Shown piece by piece: positions 12,818 to 48,772 of a stretch of 51,398 bases of DNA. A program made the position numbers and the translations under genes. The stretch comes from Patescibacteria group bacterium. GTDB taxonomy: Bacteria > Patescibacteriota > Minisyncoccia > Minisyncoccales > GWA2-38-27. The notes below the pieces were generated by a model. The model made no database searches, was not told the origin of the DNA, and was given only the letters and a program-made list of their open reading frames with translations. The DNA lies in assembly GCA_018830125.1 (NCBI GenBank), contig JAHJSY010000002.1, positions 1 to 51,398 of the forward strand, read 5' to 3'. How positions within the stretch are numbered: position 1 is the stretch's first letter; each line of letters begins with the position of its first letter.

Positions 12818-14977
12818 ATGGAAATTAAAAAAGCACTTATTACTGGAATCACAGGACAAGATGGATCTTATTTAACAGAACTTTTGTTAGAAAAGGGTTA
12901 CGAAGTTCACGGTATGGTTAGAAGAGGAAGTACTATTAACACGGTGAGAATAGATAAGCCCCTAGCGGAAGGGAAAATTCTTCTTCATTATGGGGACTTA
13001 ACTGACGTTAATTCTATTGTTTCAATATTAACAAAAGTAAAACCAGATGAAATATATAACTTAGGAGCAATGTCTCATGTTAAAGTTTCTTTTGATGTGC
13101 CTGAATATACTGGTCAAACCACTGGTTTGGGTTCAGTTAGGATATTAGAGGCCCTGAGAAGCCTAGGAATGACTCACGTTAAATATTATCAGGCCTCTAG
13201 TAGTGAGATGTTTGGTATAAGTCCACCACCTCAAAATGAAGAGACAATATTTAGACCTCAGTCGCCTTATGGTTGCGCCAAGCTTTATTCTTATTGGATA
13301 ACTAAAACCTATAGAAAGGCCTACGGAATGTTTGCCTGTAATGGAATACTTTTTAATCACGAAACGATAGCTTCGTTTATGCCGATGTTTTGTAAGAATA
13401 ATGACGAAGAGGAATTTGATATAAAGCCGATAAGAGAAATTGTAAGTTTTGATGAGACCAAAAAATGTTATCAATCAAAAAAGGTAGAAGGATTACAAGT
13501 GTGGGGTAAAGAAGGTTGGGTTGATGTAAGATTCGCCTCTGCTTATCCTCATAACATAAAAAAAGATAATAAGCACCCAAGATTTATAAACTCCAGATCT
13601 GGGGCTTTTATGGCTACTGGAAGTCATGTCGGCTTCTTAAAAGATAATTCTGAAAAAGAAGTTCGAGATATGGAAGTAGGAGACCAGTTGGAAGTTGTGA
13701 GACTTCCAGAACCATCAAATAAGGCAAATTATTTAGTATCAAAAGAGGAAGCGGAACTAATTGGAGTGATAGTTGGAGATGGTTCTATAACTTACGCTAA
13801 AAAGGGCAGTGGTCTTCACGGAAAATTTACTAATTCTTCAGAAACTGTCAGAGAATATTTTAGTCATTTATGGTCAGACGTAACAGGAGGTTCAACATCT
13901 TACTATCCATCAAAGTCTGGATTTAATCCTAAAAAAATAGTGGGGCAATTAAGATTAATAGGTGGAAATGATTGGCTTAGAAAAATAGATATATATAATA
14001 ATGACAAGACAAAAAGAATTCCTAAAATTATTCTTAATTCTTCCCCTGAAATTATGACTTCTTTCCTTGAAGGATATAATGTAGCTGATGGGTTAAAGAA
14101 AAATCCTTGTATTTACGAGTTTAAAAACTTTAAAACCAATTCAGCTACTCTGGCTATGGGATTGTGGTATCTTATAGATAAAACCACTGGACAAGATGTC
14201 AATCTTACATTGGAAGAAAAAGATGACGGAAGGATTTTTTATTCGTTAAATATGCTTACAACAACAGATAGCTTATTAAAAGAAACGAAGGTAAAAGATT
14301 TAATGAAAACCAATCTTTCTCAAAGAGGAATTTGTAGAAAAACTAAAATTTCAAGAACCTTTATAAGAAAAATACAGCTCGGTGGTTCTTGTTGTTTGGT
14401 TCATCACTTAAGAAAAGACCCTTTGGAGGTTAAAAAAATAATAGATATGCCAGAACATAAGGGTTGGTTTTACGATTTAGAAACATCATCAGGAGAATTT
14501 CATTGTGGAATAGGGAAGTGTCATGTTCATAATAGTCCTCGTCGGGGAGAGACATTTGTAACTAAAAAAATAGTAAGATCAGCCGTTAGAATTAAATTAG
14601 GACTTCAGAATAAAATTTGCCTTGGGAACTTAAAGGCCAAAAGAGACTGGGGGTTTGCCGGTGATTATATGGAAGCGATTTATAAGATAATGCATCATGA
14701 TAAGCCCGATGATTTTATTGTAGCTACCAAAGAACATCACACCATAGAAGAATTTGCCCAAAAAGTGTTTAAAAAATTAGGATTAAAATTTGAGGATTAT
14801 TTAGAAGTTAGTGATCAATATTTTAGACCCAACGAAGTACCTGATCTTATGGGAGATGCTACTAAAATTAAAACAGTTTTGGGCTGGGAACCCAAAGTTA
14901 AATTTGACGAATTAATAGACATGATGATTCAAGAAACTTTAAAGGAAGAAAATGCTAAACTTAAAGGAAATTCATAA
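12818..14977 (+). CDS. gmd: GDP-mannose 4,6-dehydratase interrupted by an intein
   Basis: The exteins read [14 protein letters not shown]...[10 protein letters not shown]...SPYGCAKLY...NGILFNHE | [13 protein letters not shown]...RDWGFAGDY, which is canonical Gmd. A 390-aa insert splits the conserved NHESPRRGE motif. Confidence 0.9.
13364..14533 (+). mobile_element. Intein with a LAGLIDADG homing-endonuclease domain, inserted in gmd
   Basis: Block B TGSH (T267-H270). Two LAGLIDADG motifs ([22 protein letters not shown]). Block [25 protein letters not shown] followed by +1 Ser. Removing it restores NHE-SPRRGE. Confidence 0.85.
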
Positions 14978-30709: not shown

Positions 30710-30746
30710 AATAATTAAAAAGAGAGTCAATCTAATATCGTAGCTA

Positions 30747-30774
30747 TTGACAAATTCTGTGGGTTTGCTATGCT
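30747..30774 (+). promoter_or_regulatory. Promoter-like element TTGACA-16-(TGc)TATGCT
   Basis: TTGACA at 30747-52. Extended -10 TGCTATGCT at 30766-74. Confidence 0.45.
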
Positions 30775-30780
30775 GTAGGT

Positions 30781-30939
30781 GTAGCACATTTAAGAGAGAT
30801 CAGAGGTCCGAGGGAAAAATATGACTTTGACCCACCAGGAAAAAGCCTAGAGCCGGGCTCTCATGAAACGGCCCAACACCTGACCTTCTGATCACTTATC
30901 GAAAGCCGCAATTGTTTACACAACATTTGCGGCTTTTTT
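30781..30939 (+). ncRNA. Candidate ~160-nt structured RNA or leader of unknown class
   Basis: Lies between the promoter above and an intrinsic terminator. Long-range pairing gatcagaggtc (30799-30809) with gaccttctgatc (30882-30893). No ORF longer than 9 codons. Shares short motifs (gaggtccga, ccaacacctg) with the GC-rich island repeat. Confidence 0.35.
30904..30939 (+). terminator. Intrinsic terminator
   Basis: Stem agccgcaa / ttgcggct followed by tttttt. Confidence 0.7.
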
Positions 30940-30961
30940 CTTGATTTTAATTTTATTGTAC

Positions 30962-30990
30962 TTGACAATGCTAGATGGAGAGAATATAAA
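30962..30990 (+). promoter_or_regulatory. Cassette promoter P1 (TTGACA-17-TATAAA)
   Basis: Consensus -35, a 17-nt spacer, and a near-consensus -10, 65 nt upstream of ATG 31056. Confidence 0.55.
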
Positions 30991-31055
30991 GAAGTATTGT
31001 TTTGAATCAGTTCTTTTAAAGGTAAAGATAATTAGAGAAGAAAGGAAGGTGTCTT

Positions 31056-31811
31056 ATGTGTCGGAAAGCGTTAATGGTTATTTTGTTAGGAGTTTCTATC
31101 GCTCATACCTCAGAAGGAGAAGAAAGAATCAGGCTACTTTTAGACATACCTCTCGATCTGCAGTTCAGCACACCTTCTGTAAAAGAAGTTAGCAACGTGT
31201 TTGAATCTATCAGAAATGTGCCGATTCACGAAGATGACCCATGGGGGACACCCGGTGTAATTGCTAAAAATAGAGGGGATGCTCCCTGGATAGTCGAACT
31301 TAGATTTTTAAATCTTGGAGTAGAGGTAGATTTGGACCCAACCGTCTGGAAGAACTATTTTGACCTTAGTTGGAATATTGGCCATTGGCTTATGATTGGA
31401 TCCGATGCTCAAGAGCGTAATTACACAAATGCTCCCGGAACAGAACAGCGAGGATATGGAGCAGCTCTTACTTTTTGGACTCCTGGATATAGTCGTATTA
31501 TACCCGGCTTCAGAACAGAATTTCATTTTGAAAACAATTGGTTTGTTGGCGCTGGTTTTCGGAAGTACGACCTAGAGATTATTACAGGATATGATCGTTA
31601 CGACAAACTAAAACACAGAAGTCACACGGACATTGGCGAAATCTTTGAAACAAGCGTTTTTGTAGGGTGGAATAGAGTAGAAGATGATAGTACGGCGGGT
31701 TTCCGTGTGGGCGCTAATTTCAATAGCTATAATGGAAAAGATGGATACCGCGCCATTGATGTTGAGACGAATAAAGTTTCCTTTTTTCTATCACTCTGCC
31801 TTAGTTATTAA
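31056..31811 (+). CDS. Secreted beta-strand-rich protein of unknown function (OMP-beta-barrel-like pattern)
   Basis: SD aaggaaggtg. Signal-like MCRKALMVILLGVSIAHTSEG. Alternating hydrophobic/aromatic strands (RTEFHFENNWFVGAGFRKYDLEIITGY, AGFRVGANFNSY). C-terminal ...FFLSLCLSY ends in an aromatic residue. Confidence 0.6.
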   Translation: MCRKALMVILLGVSIAHTSEGEERIRLLLDIPLDLQFSTPSVKEVSNVFESIRNVPIHEDDPWGTPGVIAKNRGDAPWIVELRFLNLGVEVDLDPTVWKNYFDLSWNIGHWLMIGSDAQERNYTNAPGTEQRGYGAALTFWTPGYSRIIPGFRTEFHFENNWFVGAGFRKYDLEIITGYDRYDKLKHRSHTDIGEIFETSVFVGWNRVEDDSTAGFRVGANFNSYNGKDGYRAIDVETNKVSFFLSLCLSY

Positions 31812-31850
31812 ACGGCCCGAGACCCGATCTTTCGGATCTCTTGCCTCAAA

Positions 31851-31886
31851 GTCGTGACTGCTTTTCACAGCATCCACGACTTTTTT
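31851..31886 (+). terminator. Intrinsic terminator
   Basis: gtcgtg...cacgac stem followed by tttttt. Confidence 0.6.
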
Positions 31887-31887
31887 A

Positions 31888-31915
31888 TTGATTTTAAATT
31901 TAGAAAGAGTAAGGT
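31888..31915 (+). promoter_or_regulatory. Cassette promoter P2 (TTGATT-16-TAAGGT)
   Basis: The 41-nt block 31888-31928 is identical to 32915-32955 (P4). Confidence 0.5.
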
Positions 31916-31976
31916 GACAATAAAGTAAACATTGTTATTTAAAAATAGAAGATAGAATTTTTTAAGGAAATAGAAA

Positions 31977-32450
31977 ATGAAAGCTACAGTTCTTTCCACG
32001 GATTTTGTTTTAGAGATTAGCGGTGTAAGATACCGTCATCATCCAAATGGCGGAGGTCTTGTAGCGGAGACGGCCAAAGTAGCTAAAACTGCCTATGTGG
32101 GACCGTTTGCTTGGGTCCATGGCCATGTTAGGGTTCTTGATAACGTCAAGATTCTTGATTGTGCTCAAATCTTTGGCCATGTTCAACTCTCTGGCAACGT
32201 TAGGGTCTTCGATCACGCTCAGGTTTCTGGATATGCTGAGGTCTCTGGTAGTGCTTGGATCTATGGTTACGCTCAGGTCTCTAACCATGCCAAAATCTCT
32301 AGTTATGTCCGAATTTCTGGTCATGCTCGGATCCTTGACTTTGTTCAGGTCGCTGGCGATGTCCAGGTATTTGGTCATCCTCGGCTTTATGGCGGCAATC
32401 TCAAGGTCTCAGGCCAGACTCAAATCTTCGGTAAGGTTTTTCTTTCTTAA
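31977..32450 (+). CDS. Hexapeptide-repeat (left-handed beta-helix-like, YdcK-like) protein
   Basis: 17 uninterrupted hexads (GHVRVL DNVKIL DCAQIF GHVQLS GNVRVF DHAQVS GYAEVS ...) from residue 49 to 150. The DNA shows 18-nt periodicity. Confidence 0.8.
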   Translation: MKATVLSTDFVLEISGVRYRHHPNGGGLVAETAKVAKTAYVGPFAWVHGHVRVLDNVKILDCAQIFGHVQLSGNVRVFDHAQVSGYAEVSGSAWIYGYAQVSNHAKISSYVRISGHARILDFVQVAGDVQVFGHPRLYGGNLKVSGQTQIFGKVFLS

Positions 32451-32465
32451 CACAAAGTTTCCTAT

Positions 32466-32495
32466 AAGCTCTGCCATCATGGCAGAGCTTTTTTT
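32466..32495 (+). terminator. Intrinsic terminator
   Basis: Perfect 10-bp stem aagctctgcc / ggcagagctt, 5-nt loop, then a T-run. Confidence 0.8.
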
Positions 32496-32512
32496 GTGCA
32501 TCCATCGTCGGG

Positions 32513-32532
32513 CCTCTACGCAACTCTTCTTC
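32513..32532 (+). repeat. Partial copy (3-prime end only) of the GC-rich island repeat
   Basis: cctctacgcaactcttcttc is identical to the last 20 nt of the copies at 33396-33555 and 34161-34320, and sits in the same position just upstream of a TTGATT -35. Confidence 0.7.
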
Positions 32533-32543
32533 GTTATTTCAAC

Positions 32544-32572
32544 TTGATTTTCAAGTAAAATAAGGGTATTCT
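32544..32572 (+). promoter_or_regulatory. Cassette promoter P3 (TTGATT-17-TATTCT)
   Basis: Same cTTGATTTT context as the other cassette promoters. Confidence 0.45.
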
Positions 32573-32615
32573 GAAATAACGTTCATTTTTGTTCATTAAT
32601 GTAAAAGGAGACAAG

Positions 32616-32810
32616 ATGGCTCAAGAAAAAGAAGGAAAAGATATCACAGCTAGAACTGTAGGTGACTCGTTAGGCAGTTCTTATTGGGATAGAACAGACC
32701 GCATACAGAGTATGGGTCAAACGCCACTATGTTGTGGAAAGCCGATGGTTGCCGAAGATGATCATGGCAGATTCAGCTGTTCCACGTGTGGTGGTCGTAG
32801 CTCTTTTTAA
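32616..32810 (+). CDS. Small (64 aa) zinc-ribbon-like protein
   Basis: SD aaggag 5 nt before ATG 32616; the track start at 32589 is a TTG extension. Cys pairs PLCCGKPM ... FSCSTCGG. Confidence 0.6.
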   Translation: MAQEKEGKDITARTVGDSLGSSYWDRTDRIQSMGQTPLCCGKPMVAEDDHGRFSCSTCGGRSSF

Positions 32811-32833
32811 ATAATCCAAGTAGAAATTATATC

Positions 32834-32875
32834 CCCGCCAATAGGAAGCTTTCCTATTAGGCGGGTTTTTATTTT
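32834..32875 (+). terminator. Intrinsic terminator
   Basis: 14-bp interrupted stem cccgcc-aataggaa / ttcctatt-a-ggcggg followed by tttttattttt. Confidence 0.8.
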
Positions 32876-32914
32876 TATGGCACTCATGGACTATTTTTAC
32901 TTGTGCTTTTTTCC

Positions 32915-32942
32915 TTGATTTTAAATTTAGAAAGAGTAAGGT
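32915..32942 (+). promoter_or_regulatory. Cassette promoter P4 (TTGATT-16-TAAGGT)
   Basis: Identical 41-nt block to P2. Its 5-prime UTR carries a 12-nt tandem duplication (acaataaagtaa / acaataaagtga). Confidence 0.5.
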
Positions 32943-32963
32943 GACAATAAAGTAACAATAAAG

Positions 32964-32976
32964 TGAACATTGTTCA
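32964..32976. promoter_or_regulatory. 13-nt perfect palindrome TGAACA-T-TGTTCA in the P4 leader (candidate operator)
   Basis: Located between the -10 and the SD (aaggagg at 32981-87). A degenerate version (taaacattgttat) occupies the same position in the P2 leader. Confidence 0.3.
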
Positions 32977-32992
32977 TTGAAAGGAGGTTATT

Positions 32993-33343
32993 ATGCCCGG
33001 AACCAACATCTCAACACTTTGTGTGGCTTGTTGTTCAGAAGAAAATCCAGTAGACATGGCAAATAATTTCGAATGTCGAAGATGTAACGGATCAATGCAT
33101 CATGACTGTTGGAAAGCTAACGGTAAGGATCTCTGCCCCAACTGTCTTAGAAGAATAACGATAATCGAAATTTTAAGCGAAGTTCATGTGCGTAGCTCTA
33201 ACGACCCGGAAGTATTGTGCGCAGGCACTTTCCATGATTTTAATTACGACCAGAAAAACCTGTCAGAACTCAGAAAGATCCAAGCGCTTCAGAATGAGCT
33301 TTTCATGGCTTGCAGAAAAACAAAGGAAGGATGGGCGTTATAA
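32993..33343 (+). CDS. Small (116 aa) protein with a C4HC3 cross-brace-like zinc finger (PHD/RING-CH-like spacing)
   Basis: SD aaggaggt. C10-x2-C13-x14-C28-x2-C31-x4-H36-x2-C39-x8-C48-x2-C51. Confidence 0.65.
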   Translation: MPGTNISTLCVACCSEENPVDMANNFECRRCNGSMHHDCWKANGKDLCPNCLRRITIIEILSEVHVRSSNDPEVLCAGTFHDFNYDQKNLSELRKIQALQNELFMACRKTKEGWAL

Positions 33344-33371
33344 TTTAATGCCCTAAAGTAGAAAAAACTAT

Positions 33372-33400
33372 AGGTCGCGACAAATGTCAGCGACCTTTTT
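33372..33400 (+). terminator. Intrinsic terminator
   Basis: ggtcgc(gac aaat gtc a)gcgacc followed by tttttt. Confidence 0.8.
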
Positions 33401-33555
33401 TATTTCCCAAAAATCACCGCAATCATACATGTCCAACACCTGGTGTTGGACAAGGTGTTGGACAACGAAAGGTCGTTCGTAGAGAGGCCCGCCCACCGTC
33501 GGAGGTCCGCACCTCGGATAGCGATCCGAGGTCGGACCTCTACGCAACTCTTCTT
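33396..33555 (+). repeat. GC-rich structured intergenic repeat, copy A (160 nt)
   Basis: Identical to 34161-34320 except at 2 nt in a hairpin loop. Contains three GGTGTTGGACA sites and the nested hairpin gaggtccg-ca-cctcggat-agcg-atccgagg-t-cggacctc. Confidence 0.9.
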
Positions 33556-33568
33556 CTTTATTTTTAAC

Positions 33569-33597
33569 TTGCTTTTGAGCTCAAACAGGAGTAAATT
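33569..33597 (+). promoter_or_regulatory. Cassette promoter P5 (TTGCTT-17-TAAATT), apparently without its own ORF
   Basis: Same module as P6. Followed only by a 3-codon ORF and then a second promoter. Confidence 0.4.
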
Positions 33598-33680
33598 AGA
33601 CATAAAGACAATGAAAATTTAATTTGTAAAATATGGATTAAGAAAAATCGCTCCTGACCCCATTTCCACTTGATTCAGTC

Positions 33681-33709
33681 TTGACAGTGCTTTTTGATTA
33701 TTATATGAT
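33681..33709 (+). promoter_or_regulatory. Promoter TTGACA-17-TATGAT
   Basis: Consensus -35 and a good -10, 56 nt upstream of ATG 33765. Confidence 0.55.
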
Positions 33710-33764
33710 GACATTGTGGTTTTCTATTTCAGTAAATCAATTAGATCTTTTTATGAGGTGTACT

Positions 33765-34100
33765 ATGTTTACACAACCGAGCACAGAACCGATCCTTGGA
33801 GGAACAGCGATAGTGAACAGTGGCTTCGGTAATCGTTGCGTTATTTGCGGACACCACTTCGATGAATGTGGTATTTGCAACTTCGGACATTATCAGGGTA
33901 AAACTTATTACTATCCACCGGCCGAAAAGCCATCCTCAAGGAATCCTGTCGTTGCACAGGAGAAAAGCGAAGACAAAGTTGTTTGTCAGGTGTTTAGCAG
34001 TTGTCGTTGTACTATCTGCGGAAGCTATTTCGGAGATGGTGATGATATCTGCGCTAACGGCCACGAAATTGGCCAAGCATACACCAAAATAGCGAGTTAA
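33765..34100 (+). CDS. Small (111 aa) protein with two copies of a CxxCG-x2-F...C-x2-GH zinc-knuckle motif
   Basis: SD gaggtg 4 nt before ATG 33765; the track start at 33681 is the promoter's own TTG. Motifs CVICGHHFDECGICNFGH and CTICGSYFGDGDDICANGH. Confidence 0.65.
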   Translation: MFTQPSTEPILGGTAIVNSGFGNRCVICGHHFDECGICNFGHYQGKTYYYPPAEKPSSRNPVVAQEKSEDKVVCQVFSSCRCTICGSYFGDGDDICANGHEIGQAYTKIAS

Positions 34101-34136
34101 CATACTCGCCATACAAGCTTTTCAACCAAACCCAAC

Positions 34137-34165
34137 GGGCGTCAAATTAAACTGACGCCCTTTTT
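34137..34165 (+). terminator. Intrinsic terminator
   Basis: gggcgtca / tgacgccc 8-bp stem followed by ttttt. Confidence 0.8.
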
Positions 34166-34320
34166 ATTTCCCAAAAATCACCGCAATCATACATGTCCAA
34201 CACCTGGTGTTGGACAAGGTGTTGGACAACGAAAGGTCGTTCGTAGAGAGGCCCGCCCACCGTCGGAGGTCCGCACCTCGGATCGCTATCCGAGGTCGGA
34301 CCTCTACGCAACTCTTCTTC
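34161..34320 (+). repeat. GC-rich structured intergenic repeat, copy B (160 nt)
   Basis: See copy A. The loop is cgct (34284-87) instead of agcg (33519-22). Confidence 0.9.
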
Positions 34321-34329
34321 GTCATCATC

Positions 34330-34352
34330 GTCTGGACGTCCGACGTCCAGAC
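34330..34352. repeat. Perfect 9-bp hairpin gtctggacg-tccga-cgtccagac
   Basis: Part of a ~110-nt GC-rich extension present only after copy B. Confidence 0.6.
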
Positions 34353-34372
34353 TTCGACCTTGAGGAGGAGTA

Positions 34373-34399
34373 AATGAAGGAGGCTCGACCTCATTCATT
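34373..34399 (+). repeat. 27-nt copy (1 mismatch) of the terminator hairpin found at 48742-48768
   Basis: aatgaaggaggctcgacctcAttcatt vs aatgaaggaggctcgacctcCttcatt. Confidence 0.8.
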
Positions 34400-34435
34400 A
34401 CGACGGGAAAGGCCGTTCCTTGAGGAGTGATTTTC

Positions 34436-34464
34436 TTGATTTTTAAGCAAAAAGAGAGTAAATT
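34436..34464 (+). promoter_or_regulatory. Cassette promoter P6 (TTGATT-17-TAAATT)
   Basis: Same module as P5 (gagTAAATTaga). Confidence 0.5.
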
Positions 34465-34512
34465 AGAAGTATGAAGAAATGTTTTGAAAAATTTAATAAT
34501 AAAGATTAGTTC

Positions 34513-34908
34513 ATGGAAGATTATTTAATAAAGTTTATTGAATGGACAAAATTAAAAATTAGAATCCATATCAAACCCGAAGATAAGATTTATTTTCACG
34601 AACGTGAAGTTTGGTGGGCAAGTTTAGGGGCAAATATTGGTTTTGAACAAGACGGAAAAAATATTAAATTTGAAAGACCCATATTAATTTTGAGAAAATT
34701 TGGAGGAGAAATGCTTTGGGCGTTACCTATGACGACTAAAGAAAAAACTGGTAGATTTTATTACCAGTTTGAGCATAAGGGTCAAAAGTATTCAGTTATT
34801 TTATCTCAATTAAGATTGATAAGTAGCAAGAGGCTGTTGCGTAAAATTAGAACTTTTCCAGAAGACGATTTCAAAAAAGTAAGGAATAGAATAAGAAGAT
34901 TGTTATAA
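34513..34908 (+). CDS. PemK/MazF-family toxin-like protein (mRNA interferase fold)
   Basis: REVWWASLGANIGFEQDGKNIKFERPILIL matches the MazF/PemK core (G-x-hW.v.lg...G.EQ.G..RPvLvl). AT-rich and without an SD, unlike the other island genes. No antitoxin ORF is visible. Confidence 0.7.
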   Translation: MEDYLIKFIEWTKLKIRIHIKPEDKIYFHEREVWWASLGANIGFEQDGKNIKFERPILILRKFGGEMLWALPMTTKEKTGRFYYQFEHKGQKYSVILSQLRLISSKRLLRKIRTFPEDDFKKVRNRIRRLL

Positions 34909-34966
34909 AAAACGATCCCCGTATTTTCAAAGAAAATGCGGGGTCTCGGAGCCCGAAGGCCAATAT
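34908..34966 (-). ncRNA. Candidate ~60-nt small RNA convergent with the toxin gene
   Basis: Minus-strand promoter at 34973-35001. On the minus strand the transcript would contain gcc-UUCG-ggc, and it ends in the hairpin ccccgcattttc-ttt-gaaaatacgggg followed by atcgtttttt. Confidence 0.35.
34917..34943 (-). terminator. Hairpin with a T-run only on the minus strand (terminator for the candidate sRNA; may also stop the toxin transcript)
   Basis: 12-bp stem with one G-T pair. A-run on the plus-strand 5-prime side. Confidence 0.55.
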
Positions 34967-34972
34967 GTTTGT

Positions 34973-35001
34973 ATATTAGTATAATAGCAGACGCTTGTCA
35001 A
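34973..35001 (-). promoter_or_regulatory. Minus-strand promoter TTGACA-17-TAATAT
   Basis: Reverse complement of 34996-35001 is TTGACA. Reverse complement of 34973-34978 is TAATAT. The spacer is exactly 17 nt. Confidence 0.55.
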
Positions 35002-35011
35002 GTGGAAAAAA

Positions 35012-35131
35012 TCAACGCAATCCTTCACAAGCAATTCCATCGGCGTCACGATCTAAATCGTAGACGTCGTTTTTTATTCCCCCATAACTCTCAGTAAATA
35101 GGGGACGCATCACTTTTAAACGGGATTTTAG
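35012..35131 (-). pseudogene. Remnant of an Excalibur (extracellular Ca-binding, DxDxDGxxCE) domain gene
   Basis: The open frame reads ...MRPLFTESYGGIKNDVYDLDRDADGIACEGLR*. DLDRDADGIACE matches the Excalibur signature. Only ~39 codons are open, and the N-terminal part of the domain is missing. Confidence 0.4.
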
Positions 35132-35165
35132 TCATTTTATGAAAATCACTGCTTAAGGAATGACG

Positions 35166-35250
35166 GAAGAGTTGCGTAGAGGTCCGACCTCGCCCGCTCT
35201 GGGCGGGCACCTTTAGAGGTGCGGACCTCCGACGGTGACGGTGATTTTCG
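35166..35250 (-). repeat. Divergent, inverted copy (C) of the GC-rich island repeat
   Basis: The reverse complement reads aaaatcaccg-tcaccgtcggaggtccgcacct...aggtcggacctctacgcaactcttc. The flanks match copies A/B. The central hairpin is replaced, and the GGTGTTGGACA module is absent. Confidence 0.7.
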
Positions 35251-35259
35251 ACGATGACT

Positions 35260-35295
35260 AAATACGAAGGTTGAACCTTCGTATTTTGTTTTTTG
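35260..35295 (+). terminator. Intrinsic terminator-like hairpin at the right edge of the island
   Basis: aaatacgaaggt / accttcgtattt 12-bp stem followed by tgttttttg. Confidence 0.6.
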
Positions 35296-35310
35296 GGTTC
35301 ATCTGGCATA

Positions 35311-35574
35311 ATGAAATATATGAAAAGAATATTTTATATTATAAGTTTTAGTTTTCTAGGATTGTTGTTACAGATTTTAGTTCATGCTTTGATTGAGATT
35401 TTGTATATAGGGTTACTTGTGGGGGATTATAATAAATATGCCCTAGGTTTTTCTTGGGGTCAGTTGGTATTGATTCATCACATAGGAACCGTTATCCTCG
35501 TTATACTTGGTCTTTTGTTTGGTTTTTGGCAAGGAAAATATTGGTGGAAAAGATTGTACGAAGATAAAAAGTAA
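35311..35574 (+). CDS. Small hydrophobic membrane protein (2-3 TM helices)
   Basis: IFYIISFSFLGLLLQILVHALIEILYIGLLV ... VLIHHIGTVILVILGLLFGFW. ATG 35320 is an alternative, possibly leaderless, start. Confidence 0.55.
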   Translation: MKYMKRIFYIISFSFLGLLLQILVHALIEILYIGLLVGDYNKYALGFSWGQLVLIHHIGTVILVILGLLFGFWQGKYWWKRLYEDKK

Positions 35575-35607: not shown

Positions 35608-35629
35608 AAGGAGCCAGGCTCCTTTTTTT
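35608..35629 (+). terminator. Intrinsic terminator
   Basis: aaggag-ccagg-ctcctt followed by ttttttt. Confidence 0.65.
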
Positions 35630-35662
35630 GCTTTGAATTTTTGGTTTAATGTGATAGAATCA

Positions 35663-35679: not shown

Positions 35680-37797
35680 ATGAAAATATTATTACAAACA
35701 ATTGAAAAAAGATTTAAATTAATTGCTGTTTTTCTTTTAGCGTTGATTTTGATCGCTTTTTTTGATAAGGCGCTGGCGATAGGACTTATGCTTCTTATTG
35801 TCTTAACAGGTCTTACCTTCTGGATTATTAAAAAATTGGGATTAAGTCGTAAATATCTTGTGATGCTTTTGTTGATTGCTTTGGCGATTCAATTATCAGC
35901 TACTTTGTTTATACATTATGCTAATTTTCAGCCTCTTGGCATTACCGGAGATGGAGACTTTAATAGTTATCATGAAGAAGCGGTTGAAATGTCTCTTCAT
36001 TTTAAAGAAGGAAATTTTTCTATGGAAGGGTTTAAACTGTCCCATTATTATACAATTGTCATAGGAGTTGTATATACACTTACCTTGCCCGAAATGATTG
36101 TCGGTCAATTATTTGGAGTTTGGTTGTCAGTTTTAGCAATTATTTTTGTTTATTTAATAGTTATTGAATTAGGTGGTTCGGAGAAATGGGCCTTTTTCAC
36201 TGGATTAATTACTATTGCTTATCCAAGCTTTCTTTTTTATAGCAGTTTGCTTTTAAAGGATACTTTGGTTATTCCTTTTGCATTATTAACAATGCTACTA
36301 ACACTGAAGTTAATCAAAAGTTTTTCTTGGAGGAACTTTTTATTTTTTGTTGTCTCTTTAAGCATCGCGTTTCATTTTCGTTATTATATCGGCTATGCTT
36401 TGCTTTTTGCTTTTCTTTTCTCATGGTTGTTATTGGCAAGATTGTCCTCGATTAAAAGAAAAATTGTTTATTCAATTATTATAATTATTATTTTAGGGTT
36501 TTTACCAATGGTTTTAAGGGGTCATGGATTCTACGGAATAAATATCTTTAGAGATAGTTTTACTTCTAAAAACGTTAATTTTCTTCAAGAAAGAGCGTAT
36601 AATCCTTCATTTCCTGTAATACTCACAGGGCTTGCAGGGTCCGCAGAGTTGGCAGAGTTCGCAGAGCCAATAGAAATAAATGCCTCCATGCCCTTAATTA
36701 ATAATCGTTTCAGGGGGTTTGCATCTACATGGGATAAAGAAGAAGTAAATCCTCAGAGGGAACCTTTAAGGTTTTTAACAAATCAATTAAAATATTTTGG
36801 TTATGTTCTGCTAGGACCTTTTCCTTGGCAAATGAGGTATTCGCGTCATCTCTTTGCTTTGTTTGAACTAATACCCTGGTATATCTTATTATTTTTTATT
36901 TGCAGGGGAGTATGGGAATCTATCAAATCTCGTAATAAATTAATTCTTCCCTTGATTATTTTCTCTATCCTCGCCTTAGGCGTCATGGCCTTATTTTTAA
37001 ATAATTTCGGGATTATTACCAGGATTAGAATACCAATTTTTATGACCCTTTTGTGTTTAATTCCCCTGGGCTTCAAAAGCAAGGTGCCGACTCTTACGGC
37101 CGTGGCTATTGAGATTAATTCGGCTTGTAATAGGAGATGTGCTTGGTGTCCTAACCACACCAATCATAGAGAAGTTAAATTTTTAGACGAGAAAGTTTTT
37201 TTTAAAGCAATAGATGAGCTTAGAGCAATGAATTTTAGGGGAAAAATAACCTTTAATTTATATAACGAACCATTACTTGATGAGCGACTTTTAGGGTTTA
37301 TAAGCTATGTAAAGAAAAATATTCCTTTAGCAAGTCAATATTTAAATACCAATGGAGATTTATTAAATTTGGATATTTGGGAAAAGCTTAGAAAGGCCGG
37401 CTTGGATTATGCAAACATTTCCCAATACGACGGTAAAATAAATGAGAACATAGAAAAGATTTTAAAAGGTATCGATTTAAAAGAAAAAAAACATTTCCGA
37501 GCTTTTGTTTTTGATCAAGATTCAATTTGCAATAGAGGTGGTTTGCTAAAATCAAAAAGAGAAATTAAGGTGCCTCTTAAAAAATATTGCAGTCAGCCCT
37601 TTTATCAATTATGCATAGACTATAAGGGAAAAGTCGTTCTATGTTGTAACGACTACCATGGCGCCGTTGTAATGGGAGACGTGCGTAATAACTCAATAGA
37701 AGAATTATGGGGAAATGGAAAATTTAGACATTATAGAAAAGAGCTTCTAAAAAGAAACAGATCTAATTTAAAATTATGCGATGTGTGCGATTCTTGA
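35680..37797 (+). CDS. Fusion protein: polytopic GT-C-like (ArnT/PMT-like) membrane domain + C-terminal radical SAM domain with a SPASM/twitch-like Cys cluster
   Basis: About 465 aa with 10 or more TM helices and an early acidic loop (GDGDFNSYHEEA). Then IEINSACNRRCAWCPNH (Cx3Cx2C, Cys483/487/490), LYNEPLLD, LNTNGDLL, and C-terminal CSQPFYQLCIDYKGKVVLCCNDY...LCDVCDS. Confidence 0.8.
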   Translation: MKILLQTIEKRFKLIAVFLLALILIAFFDKALAIGLMLLIVLTGLTFWIIKKLGLSRKYLVMLLLIALAIQLSATLFIHYANFQPLGITGDGDFNSYHEEAVEMSLHFKEGNFSMEGFKLSHYYTIVIGVVYTLTLPEMIVGQLFGVWLSVLAIIFVYLIVIELGGSEKWAFFTGLITIAYPSFLFYSSLLLKDTLVIPFALLTMLLTLKLIKSFSWRNFLFFVVSLSIAFHFRYYIGYALLFAFLFSWLLLARLSSIKRKIVYSIIIIIILGFLPMVLRGHGFYGINIFRDSFTSKNVNFLQERAYNPSFPVILTGLAGSAELAEFAEPIEINASMPLINNRFRGFASTWDKEEVNPQREPLRFLTNQLKYFGYVLLGPFPWQMRYSRHLFALFELIPWYILLFFICRGVWESIKSRNKLILPLIIFSILALGVMALFLNNFGIITRIRIPIFMTLLCLIPLGFKSKVPTLTAVAIEINSACNRRCAWCPNHTNHREVKFLDEKVFFKAIDELRAMNFRGKITFNLYNEPLLDERLLGFISYVKKNIPLASQYLNTNGDLLNLDIWEKLRKAGLDYANISQYDGKINENIEKILKGIDLKEKKHFRAFVFDQDSICNRGGLLKSKREIKVPLKKYCSQPFYQLCIDYKGKVVLCCNDYHGAVVMGDVRNNSIEELWGNGKFRHYRKELLKRNRSNLKLCDVCDS

Positions 37798-47589: not shown

Positions 47590-48746
47590 GAAACTCTAAA
47601 ATAAAAGTTTGTCGTGTTGCTAATACAGACATAGCTGTAAAGTTTTTATTACTCAATCAATTAAAGTTTTTAAAAAACAGGGGCTATGATGTTTCTGTGG
47701 TTTGTTCTGATGGAGGATTAATAGATGATATAAAAAAGAATGGGATAAAGATAAAGATTGTCAATTTCAATAGAGGCCTTAATATCTTTAGCCATATAGT
47801 TTCTTTGTTTAAGTTATATTTTTATTTTAAAAAAGAGAAGTTTGATATTGTTCATACTCATACTCCAGTTCCAGGTCTTTTAGGGCAATTGGCAGCCAAG
47901 ATGGCTGGTGTCCCTATTATTATAAATACTATTCACGGATTTTATTTTGCCGATAGCTCCAATTTCCTAAAGAGAAATTTCTATGCTTTCATAGAAAAAC
48001 TTTCGGCTAAATTTTCTGATTCAATTCTTTCTGTTAGTCAGGGAATTATTGATACAGCTATTGAAGAAAAAATTTGCCGAGAAGACCTATTGCATTATTT
48101 AGGAAGAGATATTGATATTGATAGATTTAACCCAGATAAGTTTTCTACAGATTTTATTCTTCAAAAAAAGAAAGAGCTTGGAATTAATCCAGACAAGAGA
48201 GTTATTGGCATTGTTGGTCGCTTGGTTAAAGAGAAAGGATACCTAGAATTGTTTCAAGCTTTTAAAGATGTTCTTAAAAGGTTCCCTAATACATCGCTTT
48301 TAATCATTGGACCAGAAGAATCTAAAAAGAAAGACAAGATAAACTCAAATCTTATTAAAATACTTGCTACCAAGAAGAACATTTTCTTTTTAGGTCAAAG
48401 GACAGATGTTGATGAACTTTATGCTCTTATGGATATTTTTGTTTTACCATCATATAGAGAAGGTATCGGAGCATCTATTTTAGAAGCATCAGCAATGGGT
48501 AAACCAGTAATATCTACTAATATTCCTGGTTGTCGCGAAGCTGTTGACGAGAAGAAGACGGGGATTTTAGTTCCAGCTAAAGATTCGGAAAAGCTTGCCG
48601 AAGCAATAATTTATTTATTTGAAAATCCAGAAAAAGCCAAACAGTTTGGGCAAGCAGGAAGAGAAAAGATAAAAAGAGAATTTTCTGGGAACATCGTTCT
48701 TGATAGAATAGAAAAAGAATACACTCGCCTAATAGAAGAAAAATGA
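47586..48746 (+). CDS. Glycosyltransferase GT4
   Basis: PSYREGIGASILEASAMGKPVISTNIPGCREAV. ATGA overlap at 47586. Confidence 0.9.
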   Translation: MRNSKIKVCRVANTDIAVKFLLLNQLKFLKNRGYDVSVVCSDGGLIDDIKKNGIKIKIVNFNRGLNIFSHIVSLFKLYFYFKKEKFDIVHTHTPVPGLLGQLAAKMAGVPIIINTIHGFYFADSSNFLKRNFYAFIEKLSAKFSDSILSVSQGIIDTAIEEKICREDLLHYLGRDIDIDRFNPDKFSTDFILQKKKELGINPDKRVIGIVGRLVKEKGYLELFQAFKDVLKRFPNTSLLIIGPEESKKKDKINSNLIKILATKKNIFFLGQRTDVDELYALMDIFVLPSYREGIGASILEASAMGKPVISTNIPGCREAVDEKKTGILVPAKDSEKLAEAIIYLFENPEKAKQFGQAGREKIKREFSGNIVLDRIEKEYTRLIEEK

Positions 48747-48772
48747 AGGAGGCTCGACCTCCTTCATTTTTT
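48743..48772 (+). terminator. Intrinsic terminator ending the glycan operon
   Basis: tgaaggagg-ctcga-cctccttca followed by tttttt. The stop codon is inside the stem. Confidence 0.85.

Follow-up and report, generated by a model that had tools for sequence, protein, structure and literature searches.

A probable recombination-prone patch of moron-like single-gene units at a glycan-operon boundary in a Patescibacteria group bacterium

The genomes of the candidate phyla radiation (CPR; Patescibacteria) are small and compact, and the routes by which they gain and shuffle accessory genes are poorly understood. A stretch of 51,398 nucleotides from an uncultured, ultra-small Patescibacteria group bacterium (GenBank assembly GCA_018830125.1, positions 1 to 51,398 of contig JAHJSY010000002.1, which is the entire contig; hereafter the window) offers a concrete and testable case of accessory gene turnover. 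Between two long glycan operons, at 30.7-35.3 kb, lies a patch of small single open reading frames (ORFs), among them ORF1 to ORF5 and a PemK/MazF-like toxin gene. What is this patch, and how might its genes have come together? We consider it probable that this is an accessory patch at a glycan-operon boundary, moron-like and prone to recombination, which is remodelled by homologous recombination between dispersed repeats. Phage morons, the term of comparison, are self-contained promoter-gene-terminator units of deviant composition that lie between phage genes.

The patch differs abruptly from its flanks in base composition, as an earlier reading made from the letters alone (the sequence-only reading) had claimed. 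The GC content of 1-kb windows is 0.36-0.43 over 30.5-35.5 kb, but 0.27-0.35 over the flanking operons (6.8-30.5 and 35.5-48.7 kb). ORF1-5 have a GC content of 0.414-0.464 and a third-position GC content (GC3) of 0.32-0.41, all beyond the range spanned by 44 genes of the flanks, for which GC is 0.318 ± 0.021 (maximum 0.370) and GC3 is 0.250 ± 0.025 (maximum 0.321); relative to these genes, the GC z-scores of the five ORFs are 4.7-7.1. The PemK gene (0.301) and ORF8, the small ORF at the end (0.312), have native-like values. In contigs of the same lineage the GC content is 0.30-0.37, so that the patch is rich in GC for the organism itself, beyond the glycan genes alone. The converse, a normal patch between deviant glycan loci, was ruled out, since these contigs resemble the flanks.

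The ORF layout agrees with the six plus-strand single-gene units of the sequence-only reading (31056-31811, 31977-32450, 32616-32810, 32993-33343, 33765-34100 and 34513-34908), beyond which lie a minus-strand mini-ORF (35113-35012) and a plus-strand membrane ORF (35293/35311-35574). That reading missed that the spacers are paralogous: the GC-rich run that it took to be unique in the window comes back three to four times within the patch. We propose that the patch comprises about eight insulated single-gene transcription units, with spacers built from a few lineage-specific repeat modules. Modules of the same kind separate unrelated genes and are dispersed in the genome, and so they could provide a substrate for homologous recombination, which would insert, delete and re-sort whole promoter-ORF-terminator units, presumably by a RecA-type or template-switch process aided by hairpin extrusion. 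ORF1-5 would then be horizontally circulating, self-expressed add-ons similar to phage morons, drawn from families that are patchy in CPR, DPANN archaea or phages.

Repeats and strain variants of the patch

A 160-nt repeat, R160, occurs twice in direct orientation (33397-33556 and 34161-34320, 98.75% identity) and brackets the ORF5 unit. Copy 1, a plus-strand mosaic repeat (family D1), includes a hairpin at 33430-33464 and, at 33501-33540, a hairpin with GTAG and CGTC tags that resembles repetitive extragenic palindromes (REPs), followed by TAC-GCAACTCTTC. Copy 2 is the same but for two loop bases, a difference that reverses the hairpin loop from GGATAGCGATCC in copy 1 to the reverse complement GGATCGCTATCC in copy 2; such a flip suggests that the palindrome pairs in vivo. 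The inverted site lies at 33515-33526 in one copy and 34279-34290 in the other (ATAGCGAT versus ATCGCTAT). Both copies have a strong propensity to fold (z = -6.0 for copy 1 and -7.8 for copy 2), and the patch contains two further REP-like copies, one truncated (32500-32539) and one inverted (35166-35254).

The second recurring element is a terminator/promoter(-leader) module, called the promoter module here, which is present six times in the patch (at 30937, 31881, 32543, 32908, 33568 and 34435) in the form TTGATT or TTGCTT, 16-17 nt, TAnnnT. Copies can be identical in front of unrelated genes: 31888-31928, 5' of ORF2, is 100% identical over 41 nt to 32915-32955, 5' of the unrelated ORF4.

Contigs from other samples differ from the window exactly at these repeats. 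Two of them, L067 (Joint Genome Institute, JGI) and L068 (European Nucleotide Archive, ENA), encode an ORF4 protein identical to that of the window. L068 is 100% identical to 32945-33556, including the copy-1-type loop, and then continues as 34318-34404; it does not have the 764-nt ORF5 unit, and the crossover falls within ∼33 nt inside R160. L067 matches 32943-33623 at 98.4% and then 34441-34901 at 98.9%, a difference of 867 nt, with a junction at which the 33568-type promoter module runs straight into the PemK leader through a 12-mer common to both, GAGTAAATTAGA. The two junctions are at different positions, one inside R160 and one in the promoter module, which argues for homology-driven exchange over a site-specific enzyme. 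The variable accessory module supposed in the sequence-only reading is therefore seen here as the presence or absence of cassettes in near-identical genomes.

The PemK unit, too, has other surroundings in a sister MAG (metagenome-assembled genome). The segment 34359-35011 is 96% identical in three related contigs (L017, L024 and L025) with different neighbours: a 253-aa ORF and a mini-Excalibur ORF are found 5' of the PemK unit, and another REP copy 3' of it. ORF1, ORF2 and ORF5 have homologues dotted over CPR, DPANN archaea and phages, in contexts that are unrelated, and the genes of the patch are not in synteny in relatives, as ordinary core genes might have been.

If repeats lie between the units, the contig itself could be an assembly artefact in which repeat-bounded units of other places or strains were threaded together. 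Other assemblies do break exactly at the repeats: L022 reproduces the gt gene at the left edge of the patch, the following non-coding unit (unit 0) and ORF1, and ends inside a promoter module, where the end of the gt-ORF1 Logan contig SRR6514730_670 falls in copy A (∼31917); and L069 carries ORF2 and ORF3 at 100% identity with a promoter module at both ends. Moreover, the placement of ORF5 is without independent support, and two other contigs are without ORF5. However, gt-unit 0-ORF1 (L022), ORF2-ORF3 (L069) and ORF4-R160 (L067 and L068) are all reproduced at 98-100%, the flipped-loop copy is contiguous with its right flank, the ORF5-PemK spacer, within 33 nt, well under typical k-mer sizes, and both strand bias and GC skew run unbroken across the patch. 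We regard an artefact of this kind as highly improbable. It is likewise unlikely that L067 and L068 are de Bruijn-graph chimeras, because only 33 nt separate the discriminating loop from the flank, and the sequence shared at the L067 junction is just 12 nt long. Since short-read assemblies break exactly at such repeat-rich patches, the accessory content of CPR bins is likely to be under-recovered.

A tagged palindrome in the lineage

The GC-rich element in R160 has, judged by its sequence, the anatomy of a GTAG/CGTC-tagged REP within mosaics like bacterial interspersed mosaic elements (BIMEs). GTAG-tagged REPs are defined by a GTAG tag next to a palindrome that has bulges of 1 nt and loops of a variable and complex kind, and a second REP super-family by a CGTC tag (Di Nocera et al. 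2013, PMC3733652). We found 33 copies of the REP-like core in 145 kb, four in the window and at least 29 in 18 related contigs, three of which are from one MAG labelled Candidatus Saccharibacteria (CAZKZC01) and 15 from three JGI metagenomes; a 16th JGI contig (L030, GC 0.61) matched the core motif and was set aside as unrelated. The CAZKZC01 MAG has five copies on its three contigs, including one variant from a 12-mer scan.

The consensus is CGTCGTC-GGAGGTCCG(C/T)ACCTC, the loop, and then GAGGTCGGACCTC-TAC-GCAACTCTTC. The stem of 13-17 bp has one bulged base (C/T) and the same arms in every copy, while the loops come in discrete sizes (12, 21, 24 and 33-34 nt) and are in part self-complementary. 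The hairpin ends are CGTC... and ...CTACGCAAC; the sequence ...GGACCTC-TAC-GCAAC, which gives GTAG when read on the opposite strand, does not vary in 30 of the 33 copies, and CGTCGTC is kept at the opposite end. Nearly all copies lie between ORFs. A frequent form has the core joined straight to the promoter module (tcttcttcgttattt-CA-CTTGATTTT...), 5' of a type I restriction-modification methylase gene and of other genes in relatives. The genes beside the repeat in relatives are largely of accessory or conflict type (Panacea antitoxin, NYN, T5orf172, DUF6036 and type I restriction-modification). The element was not found at more distant CPR loci, and a literature search found no paper on such repeats in CPR; this is apparently a REP/BIME-like repeat family new to CPR/Patescibacteria.

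Around the core, short modules recur in a BIME-like mosaic (CCTTGAGGAG...GTGATTTTC, a TGTCCAACACC hairpin, ATAAAATGACTAAAATCCCG... and ..GGCTCCTGACCCC...). A mosaic hairpin module, ATGAAGGAGGCTCGACCTCCTTCAT, is reused at 48741-48768 as terminator of the right-hand glycan operon, where it overlaps the stop codon. The motif ..TAAT(G/C)GCTCCTGACCCCATTAT.. is often found just 3' of the core (L027, L032 and L033), and also at 33636-33662, the breakpoint of the relic unit described below. Terminal pairing of AAAATCAC...GTGATTTT is found in the copies at 34174/34427 and 35247/35145, is absent from most related copies, and is accompanied by no recognisable target-site duplication (TSD); a reading as a MITE (miniature inverted-repeat transposable element) with AAAATCAC/GTGATTTT termini was set aside, since the pairing is inconsistent across copies. 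An 18-codon frame (MNEVEPHSLRR..) in the CCTTGAGGAG hairpin module was judged to be a by-product of the palindrome. No Rfam family matched anywhere in the window at gathering thresholds, and a permissive scan of the patch turned up nothing beyond terminator-like matches below threshold; thus neither the repeats nor unit 0 belong to a described RNA family.

A bulged hairpin between small genes recalls an integron, as the sequence-only reading had proposed when it likened the layout to integron cassettes. In that case, the REP-like hairpin, on folded single-stranded DNA, would play the part of attC for a HUH/RAYT-like or tyrosine recombinase encoded elsewhere. Indeed, its stem is conserved, with an extrahelical base and a tip that varies, and it lies between unrelated small ORFs that include a toxin; the ‘solo’ forms, CGTCGTCGGA joined directly to CCTCTACGCAAC (CGTCGTCGGA followed by CCTCTAC), lack the hairpin between GTCGGA direct repeats and look like its exact loss; and two copies bracket the ORF5 unit, as after a Campbell-type insertion. 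However, a scan for the attC layout (R'' RYYYAAC...R' GTTRRRY) returned one pair in the patch, whereas shuffles gave 0.52 ± 0.73, and the arms of this pair are complementary at only 8 of 25 positions; attC-type core sites were rejected on these chance-level counts. Pfam on all larger ORFs gave no integrase or transposase in the whole window, in line with the sequence-only reading, six-frame ORFs of the 145 kb of lineage DNA (genome fragments) contain no HUH...Y motif that would point to a RAYT/HUH enzyme, and no Y1_Tnp was found among 10 repeat-neighbour genes scanned with Pfam. The REP-like hairpin is in just three or four of seven spacers, the cassettes have promoters of their own, the two strain junctions are at different sequences (R160 3' of the loop, and the promoter module), and the repeat also adjoins housekeeping genes (S41 peptidase, L9 and pyrG). 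Integron-like capture is thus a very unlikely account of the patch, and the integron logic of the sequence-only reading did not hold up. We give as little credence to a more specific proposal, in which the tagged hairpin and the promoter module would form a dedicated CPR gene-capture and expression platform, with a single-stranded DNA recombinase elsewhere and a GC-richer pool of CPR, DPANN or virus genes; if true, such a platform would be a functional integron analogue that gives each captured gene a ready-made promoter.

The single-gene units and their cargo

Each ORF of the patch is a predicted self-contained promoter-leader-gene-terminator unit, as read from the DNA. Promoter-like hexamer pairs (-35/-10) lie 37-57 nt 5' of the plus-strand ORF starts, and terminator-like hairpins number 13 in the patch, compared to 5.0 ± 2.2 in shuffles. 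The sequence-only reading had given every unit a promoter, a leader, usually a strong Shine-Dalgarno (SD) sequence, and a terminator, which is correct for the most part: the SD is strong at ORF1 and ORF3-5, but weaker at ORF2 and absent at PemK, and the PemK hairpin has no plus-strand T-run after it.

The first unit on the plus strand, unit 0 (30747-30938), has no ORF. It has a promoter-like TTGACA-16-TATGCT with a TG (30747-30774), ∼125 nt of structured non-coding sequence (fold z = -4.3) closed by a long helix (GATCAGAGGTC.../...GACCTTCTGATC), and, at 30902-30938, a strong hairpin of the terminator type. The spacer behind ORF1 (31807-31902) is a paralogue of the 3' part of unit 0 (30863-30955; repeat families D7 and D12). 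Unit 0 may represent a small RNA, a leader sequence or what is left of a lost cassette; it supplies the first terminator after the left glycan operon.

Copy 1 of the promoter module and the ORF1 promoter follow on the plus strand (30937-30991; CTTGATTTTAATTTTA..., TTGACA-17-TATAAA), and the same type of promoter and leader is found 5' of the ORF1 homologue in Parcubacteria DG_72 (L039). Only this promoter and SD region is common with L039, and no conserved structured leader was found 5' of ORF1 homologues. ORF1 itself (31056-31811, plus strand) encodes 251 aa with a GC content of 0.414. The family has no Pfam domain; a search returned 38 proteins, including that of the window, and the family, ORF1 included, has an N-terminal hydrophobic signal-like helix and a C-terminus of WKF/WRF. 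The confident AlphaFold model (pLDDT 88, pTM 0.82) matches almost only outer-membrane beta-barrels in the PDB (OmpT, NspA, OmpA, Pla and OpcA; E from 2e-4, TM 0.24-0.38), with OmpT, NspA, OmpA and a Legionella porin at E ≤0.001; ORF1 is thus predicted to be an outer-membrane-type beta-barrel. Its homologues are in Parcubacteria, Falkowbacteria, Woesearchaeota and Micrarchaeota, in a different context each time (loci L039-L062). To our knowledge, CPR and DPANN archaea are lineages not thought to have an outer membrane, and the family may be a pore or a host-membrane-inserting protein of episymbionts.

ORF1 is followed on the plus strand by a terminator hairpin and promoter-leader module copy A (together 31848-31944, the module at 31881-31944; repeat families D4 and D8). 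ORF2 (31977-32450, plus strand, 157 aa, GC 0.464) encodes a protein that Pfam assigns to the hexapeptide/YdcK solenoids, of the left-handed beta-helix type; the hexapeptide repeats, the PemK/MazF-like toxin and the Excalibur motif, all named in the sequence-only reading, were all given by Pfam. The spacer behind ORF2 has on the plus strand a terminator (32466-32496), a solo or truncated REP-like core (32500-32539) and a promoter module, TTGATT-17-TATTCT (32543-32572; families D3 and D10). ORF3 (32616-32810, plus strand, 64 aa, GC 0.451) encodes a CC...CxxC mini-protein and is followed by a terminator-type hairpin (32833-32870) and by promoter-leader module copy B (32908-32982, plus strand), which matches the module 5' of ORF2 (D4 at 96%, D8 at 83%). 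ORF4 (32993-33343, plus strand, 116 aa, GC 0.419; terminator 33371-33400) encodes a Cys/His-rich near-orphan with one representative homologue at 61% identity.

Between R160 copy 1 and ORF5 is a relic unit (33568-33635, plus strand), a promoter module TTGCTT-17-TAAATT and leader with a frame that stops after ATG GAT TAA, which points to a deleted unit. The promoter and leader are 84% identical to 6763-6837 of L018, 5' of an hsdM-like type I restriction-modification methylase gene in the sister MAG. The best sigma70-like site of the region (TTGACA-17-TATGAT, 11 of 12 positions; 33681-33709, plus strand) precedes ORF5 (33765-34100, plus strand, GC 0.455; terminator 34137-34165), which encodes 111 aa from MFTQPS, or 114 aa if it starts at 33756, with a duplicated CxxCG-FD-C-GH zinc-ribbon motif. 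Its structure model is of low confidence (pLDDT 68, pTM 0.40), with no fold match in the PDB. We found eight ORF5 homologues in unrelated contexts, and those with an assigned source are Patescibacteria; one of them adjoins an S41 peptidase-L9-pyrG block, where close relatives of the window organism carry REP copies. The family has a GC content of 0.465-0.479 and a GC3 of 0.41-0.46 in three hosts with a surrounding GC of 0.31-0.36 (for example, L063 6001-6333 and L066 977-1306), an excess that could come from frequent transfer out of a GC-richer pool or from a sequence-level constraint.

Beyond R160 copy 2 there are further plus-strand mosaic hairpin modules (34321-34467; a hairpin at 34331-34351, then CCTTGAGGAG-hairpin-CCTTGAGGAGTGATTTTC; families D9, D10, D16 and I9), which end in the promoter module 5' of the PemK gene (TTGATT-17-TAAATT, 34435-34467, plus strand). 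The PemK/MazF-like gene (34513-34908, plus strand) is a member of PF02452 (5.8e-10, 39.8 bits compared to a cut-off of 23.1 bits) and matches phrog_9567 (3.5e-14) as well as the PHROG MazF-like ‘moron’ family; by sequence it has no match in the PDB. No protein antitoxin was found as a same-strand ORF of at least 30 aa adjoining the gene, in the window or in L017. Instead, the unit includes a convergent minus-strand promoter (TTGACA-17-TAATAT, 35001-34973) and a predicted ∼60-nt hairpin/T-run transcript (34966-34905) that overlaps the PemK stop codon (34900-35001 in all). This region has a fold z of -3.0 and lies inside the 96%-conserved PemK unit (L017 226-362), and the predicted transcript is a candidate RNA antitoxin or antisense regulator of PemK.

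The Excalibur mini-ORF (35012-35113, minus strand, 33 codons) codes for hardly anything besides a calcium-binding loop, with the motif ..YDLDRDADGIACEGLR and the stop codon. The sequence-only reading took it for a decayed fragment, but the peptide YDLDRDxDxIACE is kept in a 25-aa counterpart in L017 (929-1006) despite different codons, and the unit reads as a conserved mini-ORF, not debris. An 80-aa Excalibur gene lies near the ORF5 homologue in L066. Inverted REP-like copy 4 and its flanking mosaic modules come next (35145-35295, minus strand; core 35238-35166 with a 24-nt structured loop; families I1-I6; fold z = -6.9), and a hairpin with a T-run beside it (35260-35286) is a plus-strand terminator-like element. 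ORF8 (35293-35574, plus strand; terminator 35608-35630) encodes a small membrane protein of 87-93 aa and is native in GC.

These contents raise the possibility that the patch is the decayed remnant of a phage or mobile element of ∼42-46% GC from which the structural and integration genes have been lost. The GC-rich ORF1-5 are contiguous, ORF2 matches phrog_5070 (9.7e-30) and has relatives in 71 phage genomes, PemK falls in PHROG MazF-like ‘moron’ families, and one ORF1 homologue sits among methyltransferases and tiny ORFs, two of which match PHROGs. However, there are no phage structural, replication or integration genes in the patch or flanks, no tRNA in the window, and no att-type direct repeats where the patch meets its flanks; for ORF1, neither IMG/VR nor GenBank phages gave a match. 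Furthermore, the units vary singly and their homologues are found separately in unrelated chromosomal contexts, while the spacers are host-lineage repeats that lie beside housekeeping genes as well. We judge a phage remnant to be unlikely, and the moron analogy of the sequence-only reading fits the ORF2 and PemK units. A defence role, which that reading had also considered, finds no counterpart among the families of PADLOC, which gave no match.

The patch could also be an ordinary inter-operon spacer with resident small genes, in which REP/MITE-like repeats accumulated passively and the GC excess comes from the proteins and repeats themselves. The four REP-like copies of the window are all in its only long stretch rich in non-coding sequence, ORF5 homologues are GC-rich in every host, and PemK and ORF8 have native composition. 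If the repeats were passive, though, we would not expect the ORF5 unit to be polymorphic among near-identical strains with junctions exactly in repeats, nor the PemK and Excalibur units to be re-ordered in the sister MAG; in addition, GC3 is shifted together with GC in five genes, and homologues are not syntenic. A passive spacer is therefore rather less probable than even a phage remnant.

Several observations weigh against the remodelling of the patch by recombination between repeats, which we nevertheless prefer. Promoter-like sites are just modestly enriched, 27 compared to 17.8 ± 4.1 in shuffles. Since ORF5 is GC-rich in every host, its composition could reflect a constraint on the gene instead of recent transfer. 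The related loci were fetched by means of the repeat itself, which biases both the density of copies and their genomic preference. At the assembly level, L067 and L068 are short, with lengths of 0.7-1.1 kb, and the ORF5-unit event can be read as an insertion or as a deletion. Finally, homologue searches found no close relative that shares the same glycan locus: relatives of the PMT half of the gene to the right of the patch are only 39-41% identical and have different neighbours, the gt gene gave no relatives, and exact-protein look-ups of the PMT-radical SAM gene, PemK and ORF8 gave no match.

The flanking operons encode NDP-sugar enzymes, glycosyltransferases, Wzy-type ligases, ABC exporters and a Wzx flippase. 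Exporters of its own (Wzm/Wzt and Wzx) are part of the right-hand cluster, which also has a separate promoter-like site (TTGAAT-16-TAGAAT with a TG; 35633-35660, plus strand, 20 nt 5' of the PMT-radical SAM gene), and the left-hand cluster has its own ABC exporter, which places the patch at an operon boundary; the single super-operon split by the patch, as the sequence-only reading had it, was an overstatement. The PMT-radical SAM gene (35680-37797, 705 aa) encodes a PMT_2/GT-C membrane glycosyltransferase (residues ∼20-480) fused to a radical SAM/SPASM domain (∼470-705). The halves are separate in relatives, the PMT half in CPR (L001-L004) and the radical SAM half in an Iainarchaeum contig (L005, 58% identity). 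On the left, a 719-aa ORF (12818-14977) has two stretches of the GDP-mannose 4,6-dehydratase/epimerase type, an apparent tandem fusion.

Comparison with known systems

The PemK unit shares with type II toxin-antitoxin systems a toxin of the PemK/MazF fold, but differs in having a convergent RNA candidate instead of an adjacent co-transcribed protein antitoxin gene. The spacers invite comparison with Correia/NEMIS elements of Neisseria and with BOX and RUP of pneumococci, modular repeats of intergenic DNA that place hairpins and promoter-like hexamers beside genes and can mediate rearrangements. In contrast to these, the repeats of the patch have no consistent terminal inverted repeats or TSD, with the AAAATCAC/GTGATTTT pairing in some copies only, and they have no sequence similarity to those families.

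Like an integron array, the patch has tandem, same-strand, unrelated small ORFs, including a toxin, that are present or absent as cassettes, and spacers with structured imperfect palindromes that have an extrahelical base and a variable tip. It differs in that no IntI, attI or R''/R' core sites are found within the 51-kb window, each cassette has its own predicted promoter in place of mostly promoterless cassettes under a common Pc, some spacers have no hairpin, and the junctions are not at a single position.

The resemblance to REP/BIME sequences extends to the short, GC-rich, imperfect palindrome that is extragenic and multi-copy (PMC3733652), the tetranucleotide tag at the stem (GTAG on one strand), the 1-nt bulge, as in the GTAG-24 family, the loop variants, including self-complementary long loops, and the mosaic arrays with other short motifs. 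Here, however, the stem is longer (13-17 bp), both tags are present, with CGTCGTC at the opposite end, the copies are mostly single compared to head-to-head dimers, and one common form is joined to an outward sigma70-like promoter module. The host also differs, as Patescibacteria are outside the 8 phyla surveyed (PMC3733652), and the genome fragments at hand showed no RAYT gene.

Phage morons share with the units of the patch the predicted promoter and terminator of their own, the deviant base composition and the mutually unrelated contents; moreover, there are phage relatives for two of the units, and PHROGs lists one of these two as ‘moron’. The difference lies in the setting, which is chromosomal, between glycan operons and not a prophage, and in the tandem array with paralogous host-lineage repeats. 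The cargo is of interest in its own right, with a predicted beta-barrel family of CPR/DPANN episymbionts, an orphan MazF-like toxin with a possible RNA partner and a GC-rich zinc-ribbon family, whatever benefit these genes may bring. REP/BIME-like repeats and moron-like, self-expressed genes are each known already; what is new is their combination as a repeat-bounded cassette patch, which points to repeat-mediated recombination as a cheap, modular form of gene turnover that would need no dedicated mobility genes.

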